24,011 nt of DNA from a virus: the UHGV virus genome UHGV-0298230; one strand, 5' to 3'. Under the pieces are notes generated by a model. The model was not told where the DNA came from and ran no database searches. It saw only the letters and a list, made by a program, of their open reading frames with translations. This document shows, in pieces, positions 1-11,144 of the stretch (the stretch's first letter is position 1; each line of letters starts with the position of its first letter). The position numbers and the translations under genes were made by a program.

Positions 1-25
1 AAATAAGCTCTTAAGCCGCGCCAAT

Positions 26-46
26 GGGTAAAATAGCGGGTAAAAT
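26..46 (+). repeat. Two tandem direct copies of the 9-mer GGGTAAAAT (26-34 and 38-46, 3-bp spacer); candidate integrase arm-type binding sites
   Basis: Exact 9-mer repeated twice; the same 9-mer recurs in both orientations at 236-280 on the other side of the putative core. Confidence 0.45.
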
Positions 47-104
47 TTTTTTCACATCTAAAAAACACCATTCCAATCAATCCCCTGCCGCTTCAAGTAG
101 ATGT

Positions 105-119
105 CTGCAGGGGACACCA
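105..119 (+). other. Candidate att core: CTGCAGGGGACACCA, resembling the 3' end of a tRNA (T-stem 3' half, acceptor 3' strand, discriminator, CCA)
   Basis: Ends in ...GGGGACACCA; resembles the 3' end of tRNA-Arg argW as I recall it; no matching 5' acceptor strand 60-90 nt upstream, so it is a fragment and not a complete tRNA; lies between the two 9-mer repeat clusters and just upstream of int. Confidence 0.5.
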
Positions 120-235
120 TTTATCAGTTCGCTCCCATCCGTACCAGTCCGCAAAATCCCCTGAATATCAAGCCTTCCGTAGATTCACAGTTCGTCATGG
201 TTCGCTTCAGATCGTTGACAGCCGCACTCCATGAC

Positions 236-280
236 GGGTAAAAAGTGGATAAAATAATTTTACCCACCGGATTTTTACCC
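236..280. repeat. Cluster of the same 9-mer in both orientations: GGGTAAAAA 236-244, GGATAAAAT 247-255, ATTTTACCC 257-265 (inverted), ATTTTTACCC 271-280 (inverted); candidate arm-type sites overlapping the int translation start
   Basis: Direct reading of sequence; the repeats end 1 nt before the int ATG at 281. Confidence 0.45.
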
Positions 281-1438
281 ATGCTCACCGTTAAGCAGAT
301 TGAAGCAGCAAAGCCGAAAGAAAAACCATACCGCCTTCTCGATGGTAATGGCCTGTACCTTTATGTCCCTGTATCCGGGAAAAAGGTATGGCAGCTTCGC
401 TACAAGATTGACGGTAAGGAGAAAATCCTGACCGTCGGAAAATATCCGCTTATGACTTTGCAGGAAGCAAGGGATAAAGCATGGACTGCGAGGAAAGACA
501 TCTCGGTTGGCATCGATCCGGTAAAAGCGAAAAAGGCTTCGTCTAACAACAATTCCTTTAGCGCCATTTACAAGGAATGGTACGAGCACAAGAAGCAAGT
601 CTGGTCTGTAGGGTATGCGACTGAACTTGCAAAAATGTTTGATGACGACATTTTACCTATCATCGGCGGCCTTGAAATTCAGGATATTGAGCCGATGCAA
701 CTGCTGGAAGTAATCCGCAGATTTGAAGATCGCGGTGCAATGGAGCGAGCCAACAAAGCCCGCAGAAGATGCGGCGAGGTTTTCCGTTACGCTATTGTTA
801 CTGGTAGGGCTAAATATAACCCGGCACCTGACCTTGCTGACGCCATGAAGGGGTACCGCAAGAAGAACTTCCCGTTTCTTCCTGCAGACCAGATCCCGGC
901 ATTCAATAAAGCACTGGCAACATTTTCAGGAAGTATCGTATCGCTCATTGCCACCAAGGTTTTACGCTACACTGCCCTAAGAACGAAAGAGCTTCGTTCC
1001 ATGCTATGGAAGAACGTCGATTTTGAAAACAGAATTATCACCATCGACGCCAGTGTGATGAAAGGACGCAAAATTCATGTGGTCCCGATGTCAGACCAGG
1101 TGGTTGAACTTCTCACTACGTTAAGCTCCATCACCAAACCAGTATCAGAGTTTGTTTTTGCCGGGCGCAACGATAAGAAGAAGCCAATCTGCGAGAATGC
1201 GGTACTGCTTGTGATCAAACAAATCGGCTATGAAGGTCTGGAAAGCGGTCACGGATTCAGGCATGAATTCAGCACGATTATGAACGAGCACGAATGGCCT
1301 GCTGACGCTATTGAAGTACAACTTGCACATGCCAACGGCGGATCTGTGCGCGGGATTTACAACCATGCTCAGTATCTCGATAAACGCAGAGAAATGATGC
1401 AGTGGTGGGCGGACTGGCTTGATGAAAAGGTGGAGTGA
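281..1438 (+). CDS. intS: Tyrosine integrase, P4/IntS-type (N-terminal DUF4102-like arm-binding domain plus C-terminal catalytic domain), 385 aa
   Basis: ORF 245..1438 begins with GTG; the first ATG is at 281 (MLTVKQIEAAKPKEKPYRLLDGNGLYLYVP...), a typical P4-family integrase N-terminus. The sequence matches my recollection of E. coli CPS-53/KplE1 IntS. C-terminal HxxR...Y-type region is present. Confidence 0.9.
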   Translation: MLTVKQIEAAKPKEKPYRLLDGNGLYLYVPVSGKKVWQLRYKIDGKEKILTVGKYPLMTLQEARDKAWTARKDISVGIDPVKAKKASSNNNSFSAIYKEWYEHKKQVWSVGYATELAKMFDDDILPIIGGLEIQDIEPMQLLEVIRRFEDRGAMERANKARRRCGEVFRYAIVTGRAKYNPAPDLADAMKGYRKKNFPFLPADQIPAFNKALATFSGSIVSLIATKVLRYTALRTKELRSMLWKNVDFENRIITIDASVMKGRKIHVVPMSDQVVELLTTLSSITKPVSEFVFAGRNDKKKPICENAVLLVIKQIGYEGLESGHGFRHEFSTIMNEHEWPADAIEVQLAHANGGSVRGIYNHAQYLDKRREMMQWWADWLDEKVE

Positions 1439-1590
1439 TCCACCTTAACCACTATCGAAGAGCACAAAGCCTTGCAATCCAGCGCAACGCTTTGTGTGTC
1501 TCAGTTTTGTCTCATCAACCATAGCAAGTATCGATCGATTGAGACTTGGATGATAGACTTCATGCCTTTCAGAATTCATTGATTAAATAA

Positions 1591-1953
1591 ATGTTAAAGC
1601 TATTTGCAAAGTACACCTCGATTGGCGTGCTGAACACACTTATACACTGGGTGGTTTTTGGTGTATGTATCTATGCCGCGCATACCAATCAGGCTCTGGC
1701 AAACTTCGCAGGTTTCGTTGTGGCTGTGAGTTTTAGCTTCTTCGCGAATGCAAGATTCACATTCAAAGCATCGACTACAACGATGCGCTACATGTTATAT
1801 GTCGGGTTCATGGGAACACTGAGTGCAACTGTTGGATGGGCTGCTGATAGATGTTCACTTCCTCCAATTGTCACTCTCATCACCTTCTCAGCCATCAGTC
1901 TTGTGTGCGGTTTCGTCTATTCAAAGTTCATTGTCTTTAGGGATGCGAAATGA
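1591..1953 (+). CDS. gtrA: GtrA, bactoprenol-linked glucose flippase (120 aa, 4-TM small membrane protein)
   Basis: Size, hydrophobicity and sequence ([24 protein letters not shown]...) typical of GtrA/YfdG; stop overlaps the gtrB start (ATGA at 1950-1953). Confidence 0.9.
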
Positions 1954-2873
1954 AGATATCTCTTGTAGTTCCTGTCTTCAATGAAGAAGAAGCAATACCA
2001 ATTTTTTATAAAACGGTACGTGAATTCGAAGAGTTGAAGCCATACGAAGTGGAAATTGTTTTCATAAATGACGGCAGCAAAGACGCTACGGAGTCAATTA
2101 TTAATGCTCTGGCTGTTTCAGATCCTCTAGTTGTTCCGCTGTCATTTACACGAAACTTTGGTAAAGAACCAGCATTATTCGCAGGGTTAGACCATGCAAC
2201 AGGCGATGCTGTTATTCCTATTGATGTTGACCTGCAAGACCCGATTGAGGTTATTCCTCATCTGATTGAAAAGTGGCAAGCAGGTGCCGATATGGTGCTT
2301 GCTAAACGATCTGACCGATCAACGGATGGCAGACTGAAGAGGAAAACCGCCGAGTGGTTCTATAAGCTACATAACAAAATTAGCAACCCGCAGATCGAGG
2401 AAAACGTTGGTGATTTCCGCTTGATGTCTCGCGAGGTGGTGGAAAACATTAAGCTCATGCCAGAGCGCAACCTGTTTATGAAGGGCGTGCTGAGCTGGGT
2501 TGGCGGACGCACCGATGTCGTTGAATATGCACGAGCAGAACGAGTCGCAGGCAGCACTAAATTTAACGGATGGAAACTGTGGAACCTTGCCCTTGAGGGG
2601 ATAACCAGTTTCTCAACATTCCCGCTGCGCATGTGGACTTATATCGGATTGTTCGTTGCTGGAATTGCTTTTCTTTATGGTGCATGGATGATTTTTGACA
2701 CGCTTGTATTCGGCAATGCTGTTCGTGGATATCCATCGTTATTGGTCTCCATTCTTTTCCTTGGAGGTATTCAACTTATCGGTATCGGTGTACTTGGTGA
2801 ATATATAGGAAGAATTTATGTGGAAGTAAAATGCAGACCACGATATATTTTAAAGAAAAAGGAACAATCATGA
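1950..2873 (+). CDS. gtrB: GtrB, bactoprenol glucosyltransferase (GT2 family, 307 aa)
   Basis: N-terminal GT2 motifs ([10 protein letters not shown]..., DGSKD, D-x-D region) and two C-terminal TM helices; classic position after gtrA. Confidence 0.92.
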
Positions 2874-4141
2874 ATAGCATAAACACAAACAGAATATTTT
2901 TGTTTTTGATTATATTTGTTATATGTTTCATCATATTCTGCATGCGTCGTCCTGATATTATTTCACACCCTCAACTATGGGCAGAGGATGGACGGGTATG
3001 GCTTGGTCAGGCTTATGCATTGGGCCCTCTGAAATCTATAATTTTAGTACAGGATGGTTACTATCAGACAATTTCAAAACTTGTTGCGACATTCTCCATG
3101 CTGTTCCCATTATATCTATCACCTTTTATTTTCACTGTTATTGCATTATCGATAAGATGCGTAATAATAACCTTCATACTATCTAATAGATTCAAAAGCG
3201 TTTCTATATATCCAAGAATATTAATTTCAATCTTCATTTTAACTATGCCACACCTTGAAGAGGTGCATGCCAACGTAACCAACACTCATTGGTATATGGC
3301 AATATGGCTATTCTTGGTGCTGGTAGCAGATAGAACTGATGGATTATATTGGAAAGCACACGACTTTTTGGTGATGGTTGTGGCTGGCCTAAGTGGGCCA
3401 TTCATTGTTTTTTTAGCTCCTGTTGCCTTACTAAGAATTACAAACGGAGATATTCTAAAAACTCCTATCAATGCAGTAAAAAATGCATTCAGAAACTTAA
3501 ACTTATTCTACATAACTTTCGCAATAGTGTGTTTAATTCAGATAGCCGCGATACTTCTCTCTTCTAAAGGCTCTCGACCGACCGCGCCACTTGGTGCAGG
3601 TGTAGGGATTTTGATGGATATACTATCCTCCAGAGTATTCCTTGGCTCATTTCTTAGTGAGAGCTTATCAAGAAAGGTGTGGGATCTGCATGCTTTAAAT
3701 TACTTTGTTTCTTTATGTGGCCTATCAATTAGTGCATACGTGCTATTAAAAGGGAACTGGAAAGAAAAAGCATTAGTGATTTTTCCTTATCTTATGTTGG
3801 GATTTGCCCTTGCCAGACCAGTCATTGCAAGAGACCAGCCTCAATGGCCTCTCTTACAAATAGGACCAGGACAAAGGTATTTTGTCATACCGGCCATATT
3901 TTGGGTGTCGATACTTCTAGCATTCACTAATATGCTTCATGGGCATGTAAAGAAATTAGCATTTTGCATAGTGGCTTGCTCAGTAATTATATCTGGAATT
4001 GTTAGCTTTAAAATTGAAAAAAGACCTAACAATGGATGGATACAAGAGGCATACAAATATGAGACAGCAGAGCCAGGGAGTCGCGTGAAAATGCACACAC
4101 TACCACACTCAGGATGGTATTTAGATATAATAAAAAAATAA
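2831..4141 (+). CDS. Serotype-specific O-antigen glucosyltransferase (GtrC-type polytopic membrane protein), 436 aa; alternative start at 2870 (423 aa)
   Basis: Highly hydrophobic multi-TM protein directly after gtrB; visibly AT-rich compared with flanking genes, as is typical of type-specific gtr genes. ATG at 2870 overlaps the gtrB stop (ATGA) and has AAGGAA 6 nt upstream, so it may be the true start. Confidence 0.8.
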
Positions 4142-4142
4142 G

Positions 4143-4170
4143 TTAAGGGCGGTATTCGCCCTTAATTTTA
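4143..4170. terminator. Bidirectional rho-independent terminator between the convergent gtrC and tailspike genes
   Basis: Perfect hairpin TTAAGGGCG-gtatt-CGCCCTTAA (4143-4165), flanked by an A-run upstream and TTTTA downstream; sits between stops at 4139-4141 (+) and 4168-4170 (-). Confidence 0.75.
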
Positions 4171-6060
4171 TCTAACTCTTGTTATCATAAAGTCAAAATC
4201 TGCATCAGCCAAGTTGCCAGAGTTATCAGTGGTCACGATCCTGATGGCTGTTGTGCTTGGCTTGCCTGCATATAGCACCTTAAACCCGTTAGTTTTAGTA
4301 CTTGCTACTACCTGAAAGTCATTTACTGTTGGTCCATATAAGAAAGCGCTATCAATTGAATATACCCCTGTGGATTGTTTTGCTATTGTTAAATAAGATG
4401 GTGCATACGCAACACCTGCCGACGTTACACTTCCAGAAATCACCGATGAAGTGCTTACCGTAGATATAGACTTGCTTATGTCCTCACTAAAATGACAGGT
4501 ATCCATTCCATTTAAAGTCATATAAGCACCTCCTGAGATAAATGGTCTCGAAGCGCTAGGTATGTATCCAAAAGCTGTTTGAGTAAAAAAATGACACCCA
4601 TTAAGGTTAACAATGACACGCCCACCACCAGTGCTTAACGCTCTAATCACATATGTACAATAACCGCCTGATGAATTCCCCCTTATAAATGTGCATGAAT
4701 TGATATTTACAATAAGAGGTGAAGATGTCATGTTATTAACCTGAATGTCTGATATTCCTTGATTTGCTTCAAAATAGCAATCAGATATATTTATCACAGA
4801 CATTGGTTCTTTAGCTCTTAGGTAAACACCTCCTGTACCAGTATCTCCCTGAGTTCCATTACCCTCAAAATTGCAGTTGTTTAGATTTATCCTTGTGCCT
4901 ATCTCTCCTTCAATTCCAAATTTTGAGTTACCACTAAAAACACCATTTATTTTTAGTGCGTTAACTGTGCTGTTTGTTCCTCCGTTGATGTACATACCGT
5001 AGTTATTATATTGAGAGTTAATTCTGTTAAATTCACTGGTAAGAACTCCTGTTATTACCAAGCCTGAATTATTTCTTACGAGATACACATCCTCAACTTT
5101 TAGGTATGCAGCATTGCTTAACCTTAATCCAACTCCAGAGTTACCAGTACCATAAACAGTGAAATTAGATAACTTCATACCGCTATGCACACCCTGCCCG
5201 CCCCCTTCTGAATTACCTATATACTCAAGGAAATCATTGCCATTGGTGTTAAATGCAGTATTCGCCATTGACTCGCCAGTAAAGTCAAACCTCTTACTTT
5301 TTCTTCCCATTACAGGAAAATTTGATCCAGAGTGGTTTACTGTAACTTTTGTGGTAGAATTGTATTGCCCATCCTTAATTTCTATACCTCCAGTACCAGT
5401 ATTAAGCATATTTTGAATAGCAGGTGAAACCTCTGTTCCAGATTTCACGCCAAACCATGAAGCCATTTTTGCGCCATTATATGAACGCTTCCAGCGACGG
5501 CCTACTGCATCAATTAATACTGTTCCATCATCATCTTCTGTCGTTGTATCATCTGAATCAAGGAAGAACCATCCTTCTCCTCCATCCTGATTATGTTCTC
5601 TTCCTACGCATTTTATTTGCGTTCCAGAAACGTTAGATGTCCTTATTTGTTCATAAGTCGCCCCAACAATATAAGATTCACCATCAACTGCTGCTAATTT
5701 GTTTATGAAAGCTGGCAATGCCTGATCGGGGTCATACTTCAGCACATTAGGAAAATAGAACTGCTGCGTACCATACGCATCATAAACAGCCATAGAATGG
5801 CCTTGCACGGTAACGAATTTGGCAATCTGTCCGTTATATACAGGGTAACCAGCCGCATTAATGATGATTGGTTGCGAAACAGGAACGTGAGAACCATCTT
5901 CGTTCTCTACATAAACCTGAATCTGGTTTTCAGGATTTACCGGGTCAGTGTCAATTTTACCGATATAAATTTTGCCATTGGCAACCGCTTTAAAAGAACG
6001 CGCCATAGTGAAGAGTTGCGAAGGCATACTCACTACAACATTGGCTGTAATGTCTGTCAT
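4168..6060 (-). CDS. Tailspike protein (630 aa): conserved P22-type N-terminal head-binding domain plus parallel beta-helix receptor-binding/O-antigen-cleaving domain
   Basis: N-terminal ~113 aa ([43 protein letters not shown]...KYDPDQ) closely resembles P22 gp9 head-binding domain; remainder has beta-helix-like repeats ([33 protein letters not shown]). Confidence 0.9.
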
Positions 6061-6164: not shown

Positions 6165-6192
6165 GCCATTCCACCCATTTGGTGAGGCATTG

Positions 6193-6450
6193 ATGATGTA
6201 CAGCAAATACGATGAGGCGCAGTTCCACTTGAGGCTTACGCACGAGTTGCACGCCAAGATTAAGCAACGTGCAAAAATGAATAACAGGTCTATCAATTCC
6301 GAAATTGTGGCTACGATGGAAGAATCGCTCTCCAAACCATCACCTGTAAGCGGGTATCGTGATGAAGAAGAGAGGCTTGCCTCATTAATCTCGGAACGAG
6401 TAAAAGAAGTTGCGGCTGATATTCTTAGAAAAGAAAAAACCCGCGATTAA
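6193..6450 (+). CDS. mnt: Mnt-like ribbon-helix-helix repressor (Arc/Mnt family), 85 aa
   Basis: Sequence MMYSKYDEAQFHLRLTHELHAKIKQRAKMNNRSINSEIVATMEESLSKPSPVSGYRDEEERLA... closely parallels P22 Mnt as I recall it (…NGRSMNSE…SKPSPVTGYRNDAERLA…); SD GGTGAGG 6 nt upstream of the ATG at 6193. The long ORF 5797..6450 in the track is an artefactual N-terminal extension antisense to the tailspike. Confidence 0.8.
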   Translation: MMYSKYDEAQFHLRLTHELHAKIKQRAKMNNRSINSEIVATMEESLSKPSPVSGYRDEEERLASLISERVKEVAADILRKEKTRD

Positions 6451-6458
6451 GCGGGTTT
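6437..6458. terminator. Hairpin terminator AAACCCGC-gattaa-GCGGGTTT between the convergent mnt-like gene and the ant operon
   Basis: 8-bp GC-rich stem; on the minus strand it is followed by a T-run (TTTTTCTTTTC); the loop contains the mnt stop codon. Confidence 0.6.
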
Positions 6459-6464
6459 AATTGG

Positions 6465-6686
6465 TTAGTTATCAAAAAGTCCGTAAGTTTCTTCTTCTTC
6501 AGGTGTAAGGGGAAGAATCTCTACTCTATCTATAGATACCTTTTCAATGTACCCATGAGGTCTACTTAAAATTAAAGCTCTCTCATGCCACAGAACTCCA
6601 AGAATGTGATACCTTCCAGCATCTCCTTTTACCCTGGCTCTTCCTTTGATTCTTGGCGGCATAATGCCATATCTTTTCTTTGCCAT
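6465..6686 (-). CDS. Hypothetical small protein (73 aa), basic N-terminus and acidic C-terminus
   Basis: Start ATG overlaps the stop of the upstream gene (TAATG), indicating translational coupling; MAKKRYGIMPPRIKGRARVKGD...LTPEEEETYGLFDN; no family recognised. Confidence 0.55.
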   Translation of the reverse strand: MAKKRYGIMPPRIKGRARVKGDAGRYHILGVLWHERALILSRPHGYIEKVSIDRVEILPLTPEEEETYGLFDN

Positions 6687-7414
6687 TATGCAACATTGCT
6701 CCCATGAATCAGGTGTTGTAGTGCTTTAACACCCTCCGCATTGTAGCGGAATGCTTCCACCTGTTTGCTTGAATGCGCAGATTTATCCAAGAAGAACTTC
6801 CCGTACTGCTCAGTTTTGAGGTTGTTTGCGTTAGCAATGCGACCAATCTTGTTGGCCGTTACTCCAAGCTGCTCTGCAACCTCCCCTGCTGAGTAGTAAT
6901 GCTCTTCTATTGCCGGAAGAGGTATTGCATTAAAACCAACGAGCGGGTTGATTATACTTGCTGCCGCTGTCTGCTTTGCCTCCGGCGCAAGATTTGGCAT
7001 CAGATCGAACAGATTGGTAACAGCTTCAACCGTCATTTTCAATGTTCGCGCTTGACGATACTCAACAAGTCCACTCGCTGATTTACCGCTTTTAATGTGC
7101 GCTTCTTGCATACTTTCAAGTTGGTCTACCAGTGAGCGGCGAACGGCTTTTGACTCGCGAGCGGCAACTCGCAATGCTTGCTTGATTGACATCTCAATGA
7201 TAACCATCGAAGTTTTGTTCGCTTTTTGCACTACACTTTTTGTGTAGTGCTCTCCATCCAATTCATCTTCAATTTTCTCGATGAATTTGTTATTACGAAC
7301 CTCCGGCTCACCGCACTGTCTACGAGCCTGATTTACCATCTCAAGCAGGCGCTGGCTGTCAATGGTTTTATCCGTGACAACGGATCCGATGTTTGCTACA
7401 TTCTTAAAAGTCAT
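6686..7414 (-). CDS. Antirepressor-type regulatory protein, possibly Rha/ORF6N-like N-terminal region and KilA-C/ANT-like C-terminal region (243 aa from ATG at 7414)
   Basis: AAGGAA 6 nt upstream of the ATG at 7414; C-terminal ...YYSAGEVAEQLGVTANKIGRIANANNLKTEQYGKF resembles antirepressor KilA-C-type motifs; the ORF track start at 7501 is a TTG directly after the upstream stop. Confidence 0.65.
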   Translation of the reverse strand: MTFKNVANIGSVVTDKTIDSQRLLEMVNQARRQCGEPEVRNNKFIEKIEDELDGEHYTKSVVQKANKTSMVIIEMSIKQALRVAARESKAVRRSLVDQLESMQEAHIKSGKSASGLVEYRQARTLKMTVEAVTNLFDLMPNLAPEAKQTAAASIINPLVGFNAIPLPAIEEHYYSAGEVAEQLGVTANKIGRIANANNLKTEQYGKFFLDKSAHSSKQVEAFRYNAEGVKALQHLIHGSNVA

Positions 7415-7482
7415 TAGGCATTCCTTATGTGGTAGTAAGGGTGTGACATAGGCCGCCAGCAGCACACTGGCGGTTTTCTTTT
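7409..7482 (+). ncRNA. Candidate sar-like antisense RNA complementary to the start codon and SD of the 6686..7414 gene
   Basis: Plus-strand terminator CCGCCAG-cagcaca-CTGGCGG followed by TTTTCTTTT (7453-7482) lies in the intergenic gap of a minus-strand operon; candidate promoter -35 GTGACA (7374-7379), -10 TACATT (7397-7402); the transcript would contain UUCCUU, anti-SD to AAGGAA. Confidence 0.4.
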
Positions 7483-7501
7483 GCGCCGTCCTGTGCACCA
7501 A

Positions 7502-8140
7502 TCAATGAATCCATTCCTCGCCGCGAAGTTTTGCCAGCATTGGCTGAGCGTTCTTTACGACAAAATTGTTGGTATCAAGATTCTTCATTTCACGAAGAAG
7601 CGATTTCTTGGTTTCTTCTGACATGTAGCGAGTCTCATATGCAATATCGTAAATCCTTCCAGAAAGCTCAGAACCAATTTGCTTCATTCCTGGGTAGATG
7701 TGTTTGCACATTTGTTGACTCTTCTCCATCCACAATTGTAAGTAGCAGAGATTAACCAGCTCTTCGTCAGTAAACTGTTTTGCAATCGGTGAGCATTCTG
7801 CCTGCCGATCCAAAATATCCAGCACCCAGCGGCGGAACTCTTTGGCCTTGGGCGTAGAAGCAAACATCGCCACCAAGTGAGCGCCTCGGAGCGAGTAAAC
7901 TCTGACCGATTTGTTACGTAAGCTATTGTTTATCCCGTTGACCTTCATATTGAGGGTCAATGACATTGAGTCGGAAAATTCGTCAGCATTACGGGCATAA
8001 ATTTGGCTGATGGCATCAGTTTTTTTATAGCCGAGAGCCTTAGCTAGTTCGGCGGAGGTGAACCAGATAGACCCGCCCTCTGTTACAGGGTTAAAAGTGA
8101 ATCCTTGGAAGTTATAATCTGATTTTGCTACAATATTCAT
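7502..8140 (-). CDS. Antirepressor-type protein with Bro-N/AntA-like N-terminal domain (212 aa from ATG at 8140)
   Basis: AAGGAA 6 nt upstream of the ATG at 8140; N-terminal region (FNPVTEGGSIWFTSAELAKALGYKK...VRVYSLRGAHLVAMFASTPKAKEFRRWVLDIL) matches the Bro-N/AntA pattern; the track's longer ORF start at 8224 overlaps the arc-like gene and lacks an SD. Confidence 0.7.
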   Translation of the reverse strand: MNIVAKSDYNFQGFTFNPVTEGGSIWFTSAELAKALGYKKTDAISQIYARNADEFSDSMSLTLNMKVNGINNSLRNKSVRVYSLRGAHLVAMFASTPKAKEFRRWVLDILDRQAECSPIAKQFTDEELVNLCYLQLWMEKSQQMCKHIYPGMKQIGSELSGRIYDIAYETRYMSEETKKSLLREMKNLDTNNFVVKNAQPMLAKLRGEEWIH

Positions 8141-8215
8141 GTTAGTTTCCTTGGGTACGGTTACTGACATAGAGGCCCGGTTTGTGTTCGCGCACTTCCG
8201 GGCTTCACTATTTTT
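8141..8215 (+). ncRNA. Candidate sar-like antisense RNA covering the SD and start of the Bro-N antirepressor gene
   Basis: Plus-strand candidate promoters (-35 TTGGAA 8105-8110 / -10 TACAAT 8129-8134, or -10 TATAAT 8113-8118) inside the 5' end of the minus-strand gene; imperfect stem-loop 8173-8205 followed by TATTTTT (8209-8215) in the arc-ant gap; arrangement matches P22 sar RNA. Confidence 0.4.
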
Positions 8216-8390
8216 ACTGGGCATTAGCTCTTTCCTCTCTCAGGCTTTTAGCCAGTCGCTGCACAATCGCAGAGTTGATAGAAATTCCATCCATTTCAGC
8301 TACGCGTCTGATCTCCTCCTTCATTCGCGCTGGCAAACGAAGCTGGAAACTCTGACTTTTACGACCACTGTAAAGAACATCGCTCATCAT
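8214..8390 (-). CDS. arc: Arc-like ribbon-helix-helix repressor (58 aa from ATG at 8390; track ORF extends to 8405)
   Basis: ...SQSFQLRLPARMKEEIRRVAEMDGISINSAIVQRLAKSL... has the Arc/Mnt RHH signature; GGAG 6 nt upstream of the ATG at 8390; divergent from the mnt-like gene across an operator-rich region, as in P22 immI. Confidence 0.75.
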   Translation of the reverse strand: MMSDVLYSGRKSQSFQLRLPARMKEEIRRVAEMDGISINSAIVQRLAKSLREERANAQ

Positions 8391-9137: not shown

Positions 9138-11144
9138 TTACTGCTGGGCTTTCTCACTTGAAGCCTGAATTAGAGGTGTAAGAGTTTCAGATACCCGTCT
9201 GATCGCTCTATCATAAGCAGTACTTCCTTTTGGTGTGTTTGCTAACTTTAGTAATGCGTTCCTCATCGCGCGTGACTCATAGCCCCTGCCAGCCATACCG
9301 ATACCAGCTCCAACTGCCGCAACTTTTGCAAACATTGGATTTGTAACAGATGCAAGAGCTGTTATCAGCGCTGCTGGACCAGCTACCATTTGCCCTGTTA
9401 GTGGGCTTGCGGCAGCAGTAGCTGCCTGTCTAGTGGAATCAAGATATTTCATTATCCCATCAAGCTGTTTCCCATGCTCTCCTCTGAAGAACGTCTCAGC
9501 CTGCTTCCGATTCCTTTTCATTTCATTAATAAACTTCTCAACGCTAAGCTTTCCTGAATCGCTTGTCGCCTTATCCATTGCACGCTGAACAAGTGCTGCT
9601 CTAGCATTTTGACGCCCACTATCATCAAGCAATCGATAAAGTTGCGCCCTTTCCGCTGGGCTTTGGCTGAATACTAGTTTAGTGACATCTTCTGGCGTTG
9701 TTTTACCACTCTGAATAGCTTTTTGGACACGTGTATTGCTCATCATGTCGTTGAACTTTGCCCAAGAACGATCAATACGCGACATGTTTTGCGCTTCCTT
9801 CGCACCTAGTTTTGCGCCAACCGCTTTTTTCATGTCTGTTGTGTATGCGTTATAAACAGACTGCGCAGCTTTCTCCAGCGTATCTCTATCGACCTCGTCA
9901 GGTGCTGCCATAAAGCGCTTACGTAAGTTTGTACGGTTTTCTCTAGCTAATTGCAGGTTATTTGGACCGCTGGTGATGTCATTTCTAAACTGTTGAAGGA
10001 CAGAAACAGCTGAGCGGTCTTGCGATACTCCTGGGCGAGTTAACTTGGAAATCTGCTCATCAATTGCTTTCACTGTTCCAGTGATGTCAACAGGAGTATC
10101 CCCCATCAAACTGATGATCCTGTCGTACCGCTTGCCAGCAGCCTGAATAAATTGCTGCTGACCACGAGTAGCTGATTGGTAAAGTTGTGCGTCAGATATT
10201 CCACCAACATTATCGCTAAATGTTCTAACTAAATCTTCCCTGGCCTTTTGCTGTGCATTTCTTATCCCACCTGTTCCGGCTATTGGGATTCGCTCAGCCA
10301 TAGCTCGTGCTTGCTTACCAATATTTGTTCCCGGTTCCACAAGATCTGTTGTCATCAGTGGCAAGTTGTTCTGCTTGGCAAAGTCAATCTGAGCTTGTTT
10401 TTCAGGAGCAATCTTACCCATAGCAGAACGAGACACTGCGCTTGCGGTGTTTTCTACACCCTTCAGTACCCCACCAAGACCAGCAGAAATTGCAGTTTGA
10501 ACTGGATTAACATTCTCACCGCCAGCGATCTTTGTGGCACCCTGTAAAGCTAAATCAGTAGCGCCTGATTTTAGTGTTGCACCTACAACAGACGCAGCTC
10601 TACCTGCTGGAGTGAATGCAAGAGCATTTGCCAAGAATGACGTTATATCCTGCGGTGACAAACCAGGCTTGTTAAGTGCATATTCCCCTGAAGGAAGGGT
10701 GACTATGGAATTTCCCTTCTCATCCTTCCGGATTTTCCCGCCAATACTTTGCAGTATTTTCTCCTGTGAAGCGTCGGAACCAAATAGCTGCCCCAATCCA
10801 GCACGCAGCGCATCAGTGCTTAAGCTATTAAGCTCTGGAGCAGACCCAACATTTTGCAGTCTCTCCATTTCTGGTGTCATTCGGCTTTCACCGGTAACGG
10901 CATCGCGCATTGCAGCACCTAAAACAGCCCCTTGCTCAGCAGATCGATCTAGTCCTTCCTTCTGCTGAGTGGCAAGCTGTGCATATCCTGATGCAAGTGA
11001 GTTGTCTGCTGGCGATTGCTGAACACCTTGTTGTGTTGGTGCTGACTGACCAGCAAAATACTCATCAATGGCGGTGCCAATATCTTCGGTGCTCGTACCA
11101 TCAGGAAAGGTAAATGTCTTACCGTTTGCAGTTACTTTCATCAT
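9138..11144 (-). CDS. Ejection (internal virion) protein, P22 gp16-like (668 aa)
   Basis: Position and order after gp7/gp20 homologues; N-terminus [30 protein letters not shown]; start overlaps the upstream stop (ATGA). Confidence 0.85.

Follow-up and report, generated by a model that had tools for sequence, protein, structure and literature searches.

Positions 1591–4141 of the window (the whole stretch of 24,011 nucleotides of the virus genome UHGV-0298230 analysed here) hold an intact, translationally coupled gtrA–gtrB–gtr(type) operon, lying between an integrase gene (int) and a convergent tailspike gene. As judged from sequence, this is very likely a functional lysogenic-conversion (gtr) operon, which would add a glucose side-branch to the O-antigen of the host from a weak promoter and protect the lysogen against superinfection. 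The cassette involves no new principle and its only unusual part is the third, specificity-determining gene, named here gtrC, which is a rare E. coli relative of the genes for the Shigella enzymes GtrV and GtrX in an otherwise ordinary cassette. The elements described in the original prediction were all found at the positions it gave for them, and the features of the region are as follows.

105–119, no strand assigned: att core CTGCAGGGGACACCA, with the same sequence as the 3′ end of the tRNA-Arg gene adjoining intS (argW site)
281–1438, + strand: integrase (IntS-type tyrosine recombinase), 385 aa from the ATG at 281
1459–1501, + strand: terminator-like hairpin 3′ of int, followed by CAGTTTTG (−18.9 kcal/mol, z −2.5)
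1521–1536, no strand assigned: putative remnant of the P22 OxyR(C) half-site, ATAGCAAGTATCGAT, matching 8/10 of the consensus and overlapping the GATC at 1533–1536
1531–1566, + strand: inferred gtr promoter, placed by homology, with −35 TCGATC (1531–1536), −10 TAGACT (1554–1559) and a start near 1566
1591–1953, + strand: gtrA, 120 aa, proposed flippase for undecaprenyl-phosphate-glucose (Und-P-glucose)
1950–2873, + strand: gtrB, 307 aa, predicted GT2 bactoprenol glucosyltransferase making Und-P-glucose from UDP-glucose
2870–4141, + strand: gtr(type), alias gtrC, 423 aa, predicted type-specific GT-C glucosyltransferase of the GtrV/GtrX family
4143–4165, no strand assigned: hairpin TTAAGGGCG-GTATT-CGCCCTTAA, putative bidirectional intrinsic terminator common to the convergent gtrC and tailspike genes
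4168–6060, − strand: tailspike, with a P22-type head-binding domain and a divergent low-GC receptor-binding part

The ATGA stop/start overlaps on which translational coupling had been claimed are present at 1950–1953 (gtrA/gtrB) and 2870–2873 (gtrB/gtrC), the latter depending on ATG 2870 being taken as the start of gtrC. The mechanical reading frame of this gene opens at 2831, and the NCBI annotation uses the longer form of 436 aa from that position; a start at ATG 2831 was dropped in favour of 2870, which is backed by the N-termini of homologues (MNS...), by the ATGA coupling and by an AAGGA Shine–Dalgarno sequence 6 nt upstream. The mechanical frame of int also begins earlier, at a GTG at 245, and gtrA shows no obvious Shine–Dalgarno sequence. 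The identities proposed for the two flanking genes are borne out by Pfam, which places Phage_integrase (5.3e-39), Arm-DNA-bind_3 and Phage_int_M domains in the int product and Head_binding (7.1e-67) over residues 1–113 of the tailspike. Consistent with the predicted shared terminator, the hairpin at 4143–4165 nearly fills the 26-nt gap between the stop codons of gtrC (4139–4141) and the tailspike gene (4168–4170). The + strand folds at −16.3 kcal/mol (z −5.7) and has a short U-tract (UUUUAUCU), the − strand at −14.9 kcal/mol (z −4.4) with a good U-tract (CUUAUUUUUUU). A terminator scan reported the − strand only whereas folding gives a hairpin on both; we think that the tool probably extended the stem into the T-run and in this way missed the + strand terminator. 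P22 carries an annotated terminator at the corresponding junction of gtrC and gene 9.

Coat, portal, terminase and Sf6-type needle genes belong to a P22-like virion module in the rest of the window, and the carrier of the operon is best explained as an argW-integrating E. coli phage of the P22-like (Lederbergvirus) type. The cassette is thus borne by a temperate phage or prophage, beside int and the argW att core. In the E. coli locus L001 the last position of the tRNA-Arg gene is 3015 (locus numbering), and homology to the window begins at 3001, which corresponds to window position 105; since window 1–104 is phage DNA, the att core is in its attP form. ARAGORN found no complete tRNA in the window and an Rfam scan of the whole window returned nothing. 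The O-seroconversion cluster of the Lederbergvirus HF4s has an identical layout (xis–attP–int–gtrA–gtrB–gtrC and a convergent tailspike gene); window 1–2827 shows 92.9% DNA identity to HF4s from the xis–int spacer onward, and the two Int proteins are 99.7% identical. This homology stops at window 2827, within the 3′ end of gtrB: the third gene of HF4s belongs to an unrelated family (DUF6056, 19% identity), and the receptor part of its tailspike is also different. P22 shares with the window the gtrA–gtrB–gtrC order, the convergent tailspike and the junction terminator, but has its attP between int and gtrA, and its GtrC is a Glucos_trans_II protein (PF14264) with 16.5% identity to the third protein of the window. 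SfV likewise differs in having a tRNA-like att sequence between int and gtrA. In E. coli itself, the argW prophage locus intS–yfdG–yfdH has the same attachment site and the same int, with gtrA and gtrB at about 94% DNA identity. We take the K-12 layout (CPS-53/KpLE1) to be intS–yfdG–yfdH–yfdI. A match to this argW-type locus was found in 2,627 of 5,426 complete E. coli genomes, where the slot of the third gene is occupied by a ‘glucosyltransferase domain-containing’, DUF6056, WsfD or hypothetical protein and never by the allele of the window.

The expected conservation of gtrA and gtrB is plain at the DNA level, the two genes being 85–89% identical to those of SfI, SfII, SfV, SfIV and HF4s in addition to their likeness to yfdG and yfdH. 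GtrA is a small membrane protein of the GtrA/DPMS type (PF04138, 6.6e-14) that matches phrog_2224 over its full length (8.6e-71, positions 1–120 of 120) and shows amino acid identities of 96.7% with HF4s, 93.3% with SfV and 80.8% with P22. GtrB has the characters of a GT2 bactoprenol glucosyltransferase with C-terminal transmembrane helices (PF00535, 2.7e-31; phrog_841, 6.6e-168, residues 1–305 aligned to profile positions 2–307 of 309), and is 91.5% identical to its counterpart in SfV, 90.2% in HF4s and 87.1% in P22. Together with a variable third gene for a polytopic membrane glycosyltransferase, they form one operon in the order A–B–type.

The third gene had been singled out as AT-rich, and its GC content is indeed 0.375, compared with 0.449 for gtrA, 0.435 for gtrB and 0.462 for the whole window. 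It is the 1272-nt stretch of lowest GC, and the 0.58% of stretches of this length that are equally low all overlap gtrC. The description of its product as a divergent polytopic membrane protein of the transferase kind also holds. The protein matches phrog_19534, ‘glucosyltransferase’, almost end to end (6.5e-70, residues 4–423 aligned to profile positions 7–423 of 425), and tblastn aligns it with GtrV (5e-82) and GtrX (2e-67), each over 94% of the query. GtrV of SfV and GtrX of SfX are full-length homologues of similar size (416–423 aa) encoded in the same third place after gtrA and gtrB, and they share with the gtrC product the motifs RRPD, WAED, NGYYQT, EVHANxTNxHWY, HD and SGPF; none of the three has a Pfam family. 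The gene of the window differs from those for GtrV and GtrX in lying in a P22-like podovirus at argW, beside int and the tailspike gene, with E. coli as the host. In the S. flexneri O-unit, GtrV and GtrX act on different rhamnose residues. The gtrC product is as distant from them (38.5% amino acid identity with GtrV, 34.8% with GtrX) as those two are from each other (35.0%), so that the specificity on which the original prediction had made the O-antigen modification depend is not readable from the sequence.

Inspection of conserved residues and of the structural model points in the same direction as the homology searches. The WAED motif (W37-A38-E39-D40), located directly after the first transmembrane helix, does not vary among GtrV, GtrX and the 59 aligned homologues, nor do D165 and Y337 in the same set, while E131, N135, N138 and H164 are nearly invariant. 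The conserved acidic residues E39 and D40 fall in N-terminal periplasmic loop 2, a loop proposed to interact with Und-P-glucose (PMC3259042). The model of the gtrC product is confident and has a GT-C fold, with a polytopic membrane core and the acidic motif in the first extracytoplasmic loop. Sequence identity to enzymes of the GT-C superfamily (ArnT, ALG12, PMT, PglB/AglB/STT3, AftA/B) is only 6–12%; compared with these, the protein is smaller (423 aa) and has a short C-terminal periplasmic β element (residues ~405–421). A profile search of PDB sequences gave no match to the gtrC product even at an E-value of 10. In Enterobacter, Vreelandella and Brucella, members of the family adjoin gtrA and a GT2 gene in all three cases looked at. 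As judged from homology and the model, the gtrC product is very probably a GT-C glucosyltransferase of the GtrV/GtrX family.

It is extremely unlikely that gtrC is instead a decaying or inactive passenger, or encodes a membrane protein that is no transferase, so that the cassette would make Und-P-glucose and modify nothing. Such a reading could draw on the NCBI label of the product (‘hypothetical protein’), on its lack of matches in Pfam and NCBIfam scans, on the atypical GC content of the gene and on one substitution: the acidic residue D380, reported as important for GtrV, is replaced by N387 (RPNNGW) where GtrV and GtrX have LPD. However, the reading frame is uninterrupted, full-length, translationally coupled to gtrB and aligned end to end with its homologues; all 15 invariant and 27 nearly invariant residues of the family, listed here as residues of the gtrC product itself, are present; the GT-C model is confident; and the allele is kept at 99.3% in independent E. 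coli isolates. As for the substitution, the column of D380 holds D in only 32 of the 59 family members (E in 9, N in 7, G in 6), and an acidic residue there is therefore not a family-wide requirement; the position is more probably linked to specificity.

A transferase with another target deserves separate consideration, either a GT-C enzyme whose acceptor is not the O-antigen (core oligosaccharide, enterobacterial common antigen (ECA) or capsule) or one whose sugar is not glucose. The acceptor is not readable from the sequence, the C-terminal periplasmic part proposed to hold the acceptor in GtrV is poorly conserved, and the asparagine at position 387 could be cited here too. Distant members of the family lie in chromosomal polysaccharide clusters and not in prophages. 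In addition, GT2 enzymes related to GtrB make other Und-P-sugars, and PgfS and ArnC relatives appear in the NCBIfam scan of GtrB below the curated cut-offs. Against this, GtrV and GtrX are the only characterised members of the family and both glucosylate O-antigen rhamnose, GtrB is 90–92% identical to the GtrBs of phages shown to add glucose, and gtrC adjoins, and is co-inherited with, a tailspike of a class that uses the O-antigen as receptor. A target of this other kind consequently appears unlikely. We infer glucose as the sugar transferred by the favoured GtrV/GtrX-type enzyme solely from the identity of GtrB.

The allele itself is rare. No match to the gtrC DNA was obtained by megablast or blastn, in near and distant mode, among the 5,426 complete E. 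coli genomes; at the protein level the next-nearest sequence has 50% identity. Assemblies that carry the allele include GCA_020541625.1, GCA_047529625.1, GCA_013772175.1 and GCA_002549135.1. In all six E. coli contigs that were retrieved with the allele it stands beside the same tailspike, which is 98.4–98.9% identical in amino acid sequence in the five loci compared (L005–L009); one of them, L006, has both genes in another backbone, inserted elsewhere in the chromosome. The pairing is not obligatory, because L001 combines a tailspike 82% identical to that of the window with an unrelated third gene. Searches of phages by tblastn with the receptor part of the tailspike gave only matches of 30–37% identity (Sf11, Sf101), so no O-antigen specificity can be deduced from it. 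Tentatively, and with slightly less than even confidence, we propose that the low-GC block at about 2830–5700, comprising gtr(type), the shared terminator and the receptor part of the tailspike, is a mobile ‘receptor/anti-receptor’ module that has moved between P22-like backbones by recombination in its flanks and specifies an undescribed glucosylation of E. coli O-antigen. The 3′ end of gtrB and the head-binding domain of the tailspike may have served as these flanks.

The region upstream of gtrA bears on how the operon would be expressed. Upstream of gtrA, a scan for the sigma-70 consensus gave nothing at its threshold, and the promoter was therefore placed by homology with P22, where the gtr transcript has been mapped to start 25 bp before the gtrA ATG and the site GATC4 lies at −33 (PMC2909390). 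From GTATCGATC (GATC4) to the ATG the two sequences align in register and free of gaps, with a −10 element of TAGACT in the window versus TACACT in P22, and the −35, −10 and leader are all homologous. The hairpin at 1459–1501 takes up the positions of the OxyR(A) and OxyR(B) half-sites of P22. Window 1439–1515 is kept at 87–97% in many lambdoid and Stx phages, and the site matching the hairpin is annotated as a terminator in HK620, SfII and epsilon34.

The original prediction had counted two GATC sites here and had called phase variation by Dam and OxyR, as in P22, uncertain. The two sites lie exactly at 1437–1440 and 1533–1536; the caution stands and can be sharpened, P22-type Dam/OxyR phase variation of the cassette being unlikely in view of its upstream sequence. 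The site at 1437–1440 overlaps the stop codon of int, 154 nt from the gtrA ATG and upstream of the hairpin, so only one GATC belongs to the gtr promoter region. That one falls within the inferred −35 element at a distance of 58 nt from the ATG, and is kept in all E. coli relatives looked at; the OxyR-like half-site is 70 nt from the ATG, and both distances are those of GATC4 and OxyR(C) in P22. Taken with the homologous core promoter, these remnants are what speaks for an ON/OFF epigenetic switch under which only part of a lysogen population would be glucosylated. In P22, however, the switch depends on the 115 bp that precede the start site, with two pairs of GATC sites (four in all) and three half-sites (PMC2909390). 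The pairs stand at −110/−97 and −46/−33, and the half-sites, 32 nt apart at 134, 102 and 70 nt from the ATG, scored 8, 10 and 8 of 10 in our half-site scan. The window keeps one of the four GATC sites, the equivalent of GATC4, and one of the three half-sites; nothing at its A and B positions reached the reporting threshold of 7/10. A second ATAG at 1553–1556, lying 32 nt downstream from the half-site, was weighed as a possible OxyR partner site and set aside, as it scores 6/10, below threshold, and coincides with the −10 element. Moreover, the half-site is lost in the closest relatives, which carry the same gtrC (L005 and L007–L010) and have ACAG and a 1-nt insertion there; the promoter region of SfV is about 90% identical to that of the window without any GATC; and constructs of P22 that lack functional OxyR sites simply show activity, with 349 Miller units (PMC2909390). 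Taking this together, a P22-type switch is very unlikely, and gtr expression is probably constitutive, not phase-variable.

For the favoured reading as a conversion operon, the steps can be proposed on the Gtr pathway model described previously (PMC3259042, PMC7685785). On the cytoplasmic side of the inner membrane, GtrB would load undecaprenyl phosphate with glucose from UDP-glucose; GtrA would bring Und-P-glucose to the periplasmic face, and the third protein, with its GT-C fold, would attach the glucose to a specific sugar within the O-unit, with the acidic pair E39–D40 in the first periplasmic loop as its likely catalytic or donor-binding centre. Transcription would most likely begin at a weak promoter with intrinsic activity, the homologue of the P22 gtr core promoter (−10 at 1554–1559), and would end at the hairpin common to gtrC and the tailspike gene. 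The side-branch would alter the O-antigen recognised by the phage's own tailspike, giving lysogens protection from superinfection together with a change of serotype. Addition of glucose to the O-antigen of lysogens has been shown for Shigella Sf phages (PMC3259042, PMC7685785), and lysogens of HF4s gain a second side-chain glucose, as seen by NMR, and no longer permit HF4s adsorption (bioRxiv 10.1101/2021.06.09.447823).

Through O-antigen side-branches, gtr cassettes change serotype, phage susceptibility and immune recognition. The GtrV/GtrX family has been characterised experimentally yet has no Pfam or NCBIfam model, an annotation gap that explains why this allele is publicly labelled ‘hypothetical protein’. 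Among the glucose-branched O-units of E. coli, 10 of 20 have a candidate glucosyltransferase gene within the O-antigen cluster, and for the remainder glucosylation by gtr genes elsewhere is known or proposed (PMC7685785). The gtrC allele described here is a candidate source of such a modification, either an unexplained one or one not yet described, and, should the mobile module be real, it would give rise to a new O-factor of E. coli, paired with the accompanying tailspike.

The window carries a standard gtr cassette whose third gene, rare and uncharacterised, belongs to the GtrV/GtrX family. The original prediction placed a gtrABC serotype-conversion cassette between int and the tailspike gene; the cassette is real and that interpretation is supported. 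ORF calling in the window gives three ORFs on one strand, flanked by the integrase gene and a convergent tailspike gene:

1591-1953, same strand as the other two genes, gtrA
1950-2873, same strand, gtrB
2870-4141, same strand, third gene (gtrC; the mechanical ORF begins at 2831)

Translational coupling and an AT-rich third gene, both part of that prediction, are borne out: the gtrA/gtrB (1950-1953) and gtrB/third-gene (2870-2873) junctions are ATGA overlaps, and the GC content of the third gene is 0.375, compared with 0.449 for gtrA, 0.435 for gtrB and 0.462 for the window. The third gene is the lowest-GC 1272-nt stretch in the window; just 0.58% of such stretches reach a value as low, each overlapping the gene. 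The terminator proposed to be common to cassette and tailspike corresponds to a hairpin at 4143-4165, which fills nearly all of the 26 nt separating the gtrC and tailspike stops and folds on both strands (+ strand, -16.3 kcal/mol, z -5.7; - strand, -14.9 kcal/mol, z -4.4); the - strand carries a convincing T-run, the + strand a short one. In P22 this junction also bears an annotated terminator.

The first two genes are conserved, as predicted. GtrA matches PF04138 and phrog_2224 (8.6e-71) and is 96.7, 93.3 and 80.8% identical in amino-acid sequence to its counterparts in the E. coli Lederbergvirus HF4s, SfV and P22; GtrB matches GT2 and phrog_841 (6.6e-168), with corresponding identities of 90.2, 91.5 and 87.1%. 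At the DNA level, gtrAB is 85-89% identical to SfI, SfII, SfV, SfIV and HF4s and shares ~94% identity with the argW locus intS-yfdG-yfdH; of 5,426 complete E. coli genomes, 2,627 contain a match to that locus. Int, a Phage_integrase protein with central and arm-binding domains, is 99.7% identical to the HF4s integrase. Positions 105-119 reproduce the final 15 nt (3' end) of the argW-site tRNA-Arg gene, and no complete tRNA is present at the left end (1-119). The preceding 104 nt (1-104) correspond to the HF4s xis-int spacer and not to the chromosomal yfdC-argW side, and the left end is therefore the phage (attP) form.

The remainder of the window forms a virion module of the P22 type, with genes for Arc/Mnt-like, antirepressor, injection, Sf6-type needle knob, P22 coat, portal and large terminase subunit proteins. 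An immI-like region spans 6184-8224:

6184-6450, + strand, Arc/Mnt-like ribbon-helix-helix gene
6465-6686, ORF of 73 aa without any Pfam family
6686-7501, ORF of 271 aa without any Pfam family
7502-8224, - strand, antirepressor with Bro-N and P22_AR_C domains

A 668-aa ORF (9138-11144) occupies the position of gp16, the ejection protein; it had no Pfam match in the scan, and its equivalents in four E. coli relatives with the same gtrC (L005-L008) are recorded with PF26808 (Phage_P22_gp16).

The third protein matches no Pfam or NCBIfam family and no PDB sequence. Its reading as a type-specific transferase is supported by a match to phrog_19534 'glucosyltransferase' (6.5e-70) and by homology to GtrV and GtrX: tblastn against 50,697 phage records returns only GtrV of SfV (5e-82) and GtrX of SfX (2e-67). 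Global identities are 38.5% with GtrV, 34.8% with GtrX and 35.0% between these two, both of which are experimentally characterised and likewise without a Pfam-A family (L003 4405-5658 and L011 23-1273). HF4s and P22 have third genes from unrelated families, DUF6056 and Glucos_trans_II respectively. In public records the window allele is labelled 'hypothetical protein'. Homologue N-termini favour the ATG at 2870, giving 423 aa, and disfavour the 436-aa NCBI form.

Directly after the first transmembrane helix, a WAED motif (E39-D40) is invariant in 59 of 59 homologues, as are D165 and Y337; E131, N135, N138, H164, R236 and R336 are nearly invariant. We infer that E39-D40 corresponds to the acidic motif that GT-C enzymes carry in their first extracytoplasmic loop, in line with a proposed role of loop 2 of Gtr proteins in handling Und-P-glucose (PMC3259042). 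GtrV D380, reported to be important for GtrV (PMC3259042), is Asn387 in the window protein, and its column across the 59 members (D 32, E 9, N 7, G 6) shows a variability that would fit a role in specificity rather than catalysis. A gtrA and a GT2 gene adjoin family members in Enterobacter, Vreelandella and Brucella alike, which ties the family to Und-P-sugar donors. Distant members lie in Vreelandella (L012 2632-5323), flanked not by phage genes but by ones of the sugar-nucleotide and glycosyltransferase kinds, and in Brucella (L014 204-2935), where an RgpF-family gene comes next; the family is therefore not confined to phages.

Phase variation of the P22 type had been called uncertain, on the basis of two GATC sites upstream. 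These lie exactly at 1437-1440 and 1533-1536. In P22, phase variation requires 115 bp upstream of the start site, itself 25 bp upstream of the gtrA ATG, with four GATC sites (-110, -97, -46 and -33) and three OxyR half-sites; promoter constructs without functional OxyR sites are constitutively active (PMC2909390). The window aligns with P22 without gaps from GTATCGATC to the ATG, which puts the only GATC of its promoter in the position of GATC4 and predicts two elements:

1554-1559, -10 element TAGACT
near 1566, transcription start

The half-site scan, which recovers the P22 sites 134, 102 and 70 nt from the ATG (scores 8, 10 and 8 of 10), finds in the window only a C-like site, ATAGCAAGTATCGAT (1521-1535), and nothing scoring at least 7 of 10 at the A and B positions. 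A terminator-like hairpin lying 3' of int (1459-1501) takes their place. The int 3' flank (1439-1515), including the start of this hairpin, is 87-97% conserved in many lambdoid, Stx-converting and P22-like phages, and its counterpart is annotated as a terminator in several records; this flank looks to be an int-terminator module shared by many phages. The C-like site is disrupted in the closest relatives with the same gtrC (L005, L007-L010), and SfV has no GATC in its gtr promoter region. Together with the activity of OxyR-less P22 constructs, the few sites in the window make a P22-type switch unlikely. Constitutive gtr expression is the best reading. The gtrA leader (1569-1590, CAGAATTCATTGATTAAATAA), with no obvious Shine-Dalgarno sequence, resembles that of SfV; a different leader (GATTATTAGCTGATAGAAGAA) precedes gtrA in the closest E. 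coli relatives, although the flanking sequence is E. coli-type. The leader is a small mosaic patch.

Homology to other phages ends at 2819-2858, within the 3' end of gtrB. Neither megablast nor blastn matches the gtrC allele to DNA of any of 5,426 complete E. coli genomes; in a large protein collection, a single E. coli cluster of 43 sequences, labelled 'hypothetical protein', reaches 99% identity, beyond which the nearest protein is only 50% identical. Six E. coli contigs with the allele were retrieved, and protein identities were computed for five (L005-L009): GtrC shows 99.3% identity, and in every case the same 630-aa tailspike comes next (98.4-98.9% identity). In one of these (L006 6258-11230, GCA_047529625.1), GtrC (99.3%) and the tailspike (98.9%) lie in another backbone, where gtrA is only 85.8% identical, int does not adjoin and the chromosomal neighbourhood differs (Peptidase_S24, PBP5-type peptidase and cobU/cobS-type genes). 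Its gtr upstream region also differs, with a GATC pair 71 and 58 nt and a B-like OxyR half-site 101 nt from the ATG. gtrC and the tailspike gene seem to travel together. The receptor part of the tailspike is low in GC (GC3 0.281), with phage matches of only 30-37%. In E. coli VTB97584v (L001 5758-9199, NZ_CP178707.1), a tailspike 82% identical to that of the window accompanies a 507-aa third gene product without a Pfam family and unrelated to the window gtrC; tailspikes of related sequence can therefore pair with differing modification enzymes.

The established Gtr model runs from GtrB through GtrA to the type-specific enzyme (PMC3259042, PMC7685785). GtrB would form Und-P-glucose, GtrA would flip it to the periplasmic face, and the third protein, as a GT-C enzyme, would add glucose to one O-unit sugar in the periplasm. 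Lysogens of HF4s, whose architecture is identical to that of the window, acquire a second glucose on the side chain and cease to adsorb HF4s (bioRxiv 10.1101/2021.06.09.447823). By analogy with such relatives, we infer glucose as the sugar, O-antigen as the acceptor and exclusion as the outcome, whereby modification of the O-unit would block the phage's own tailspike.
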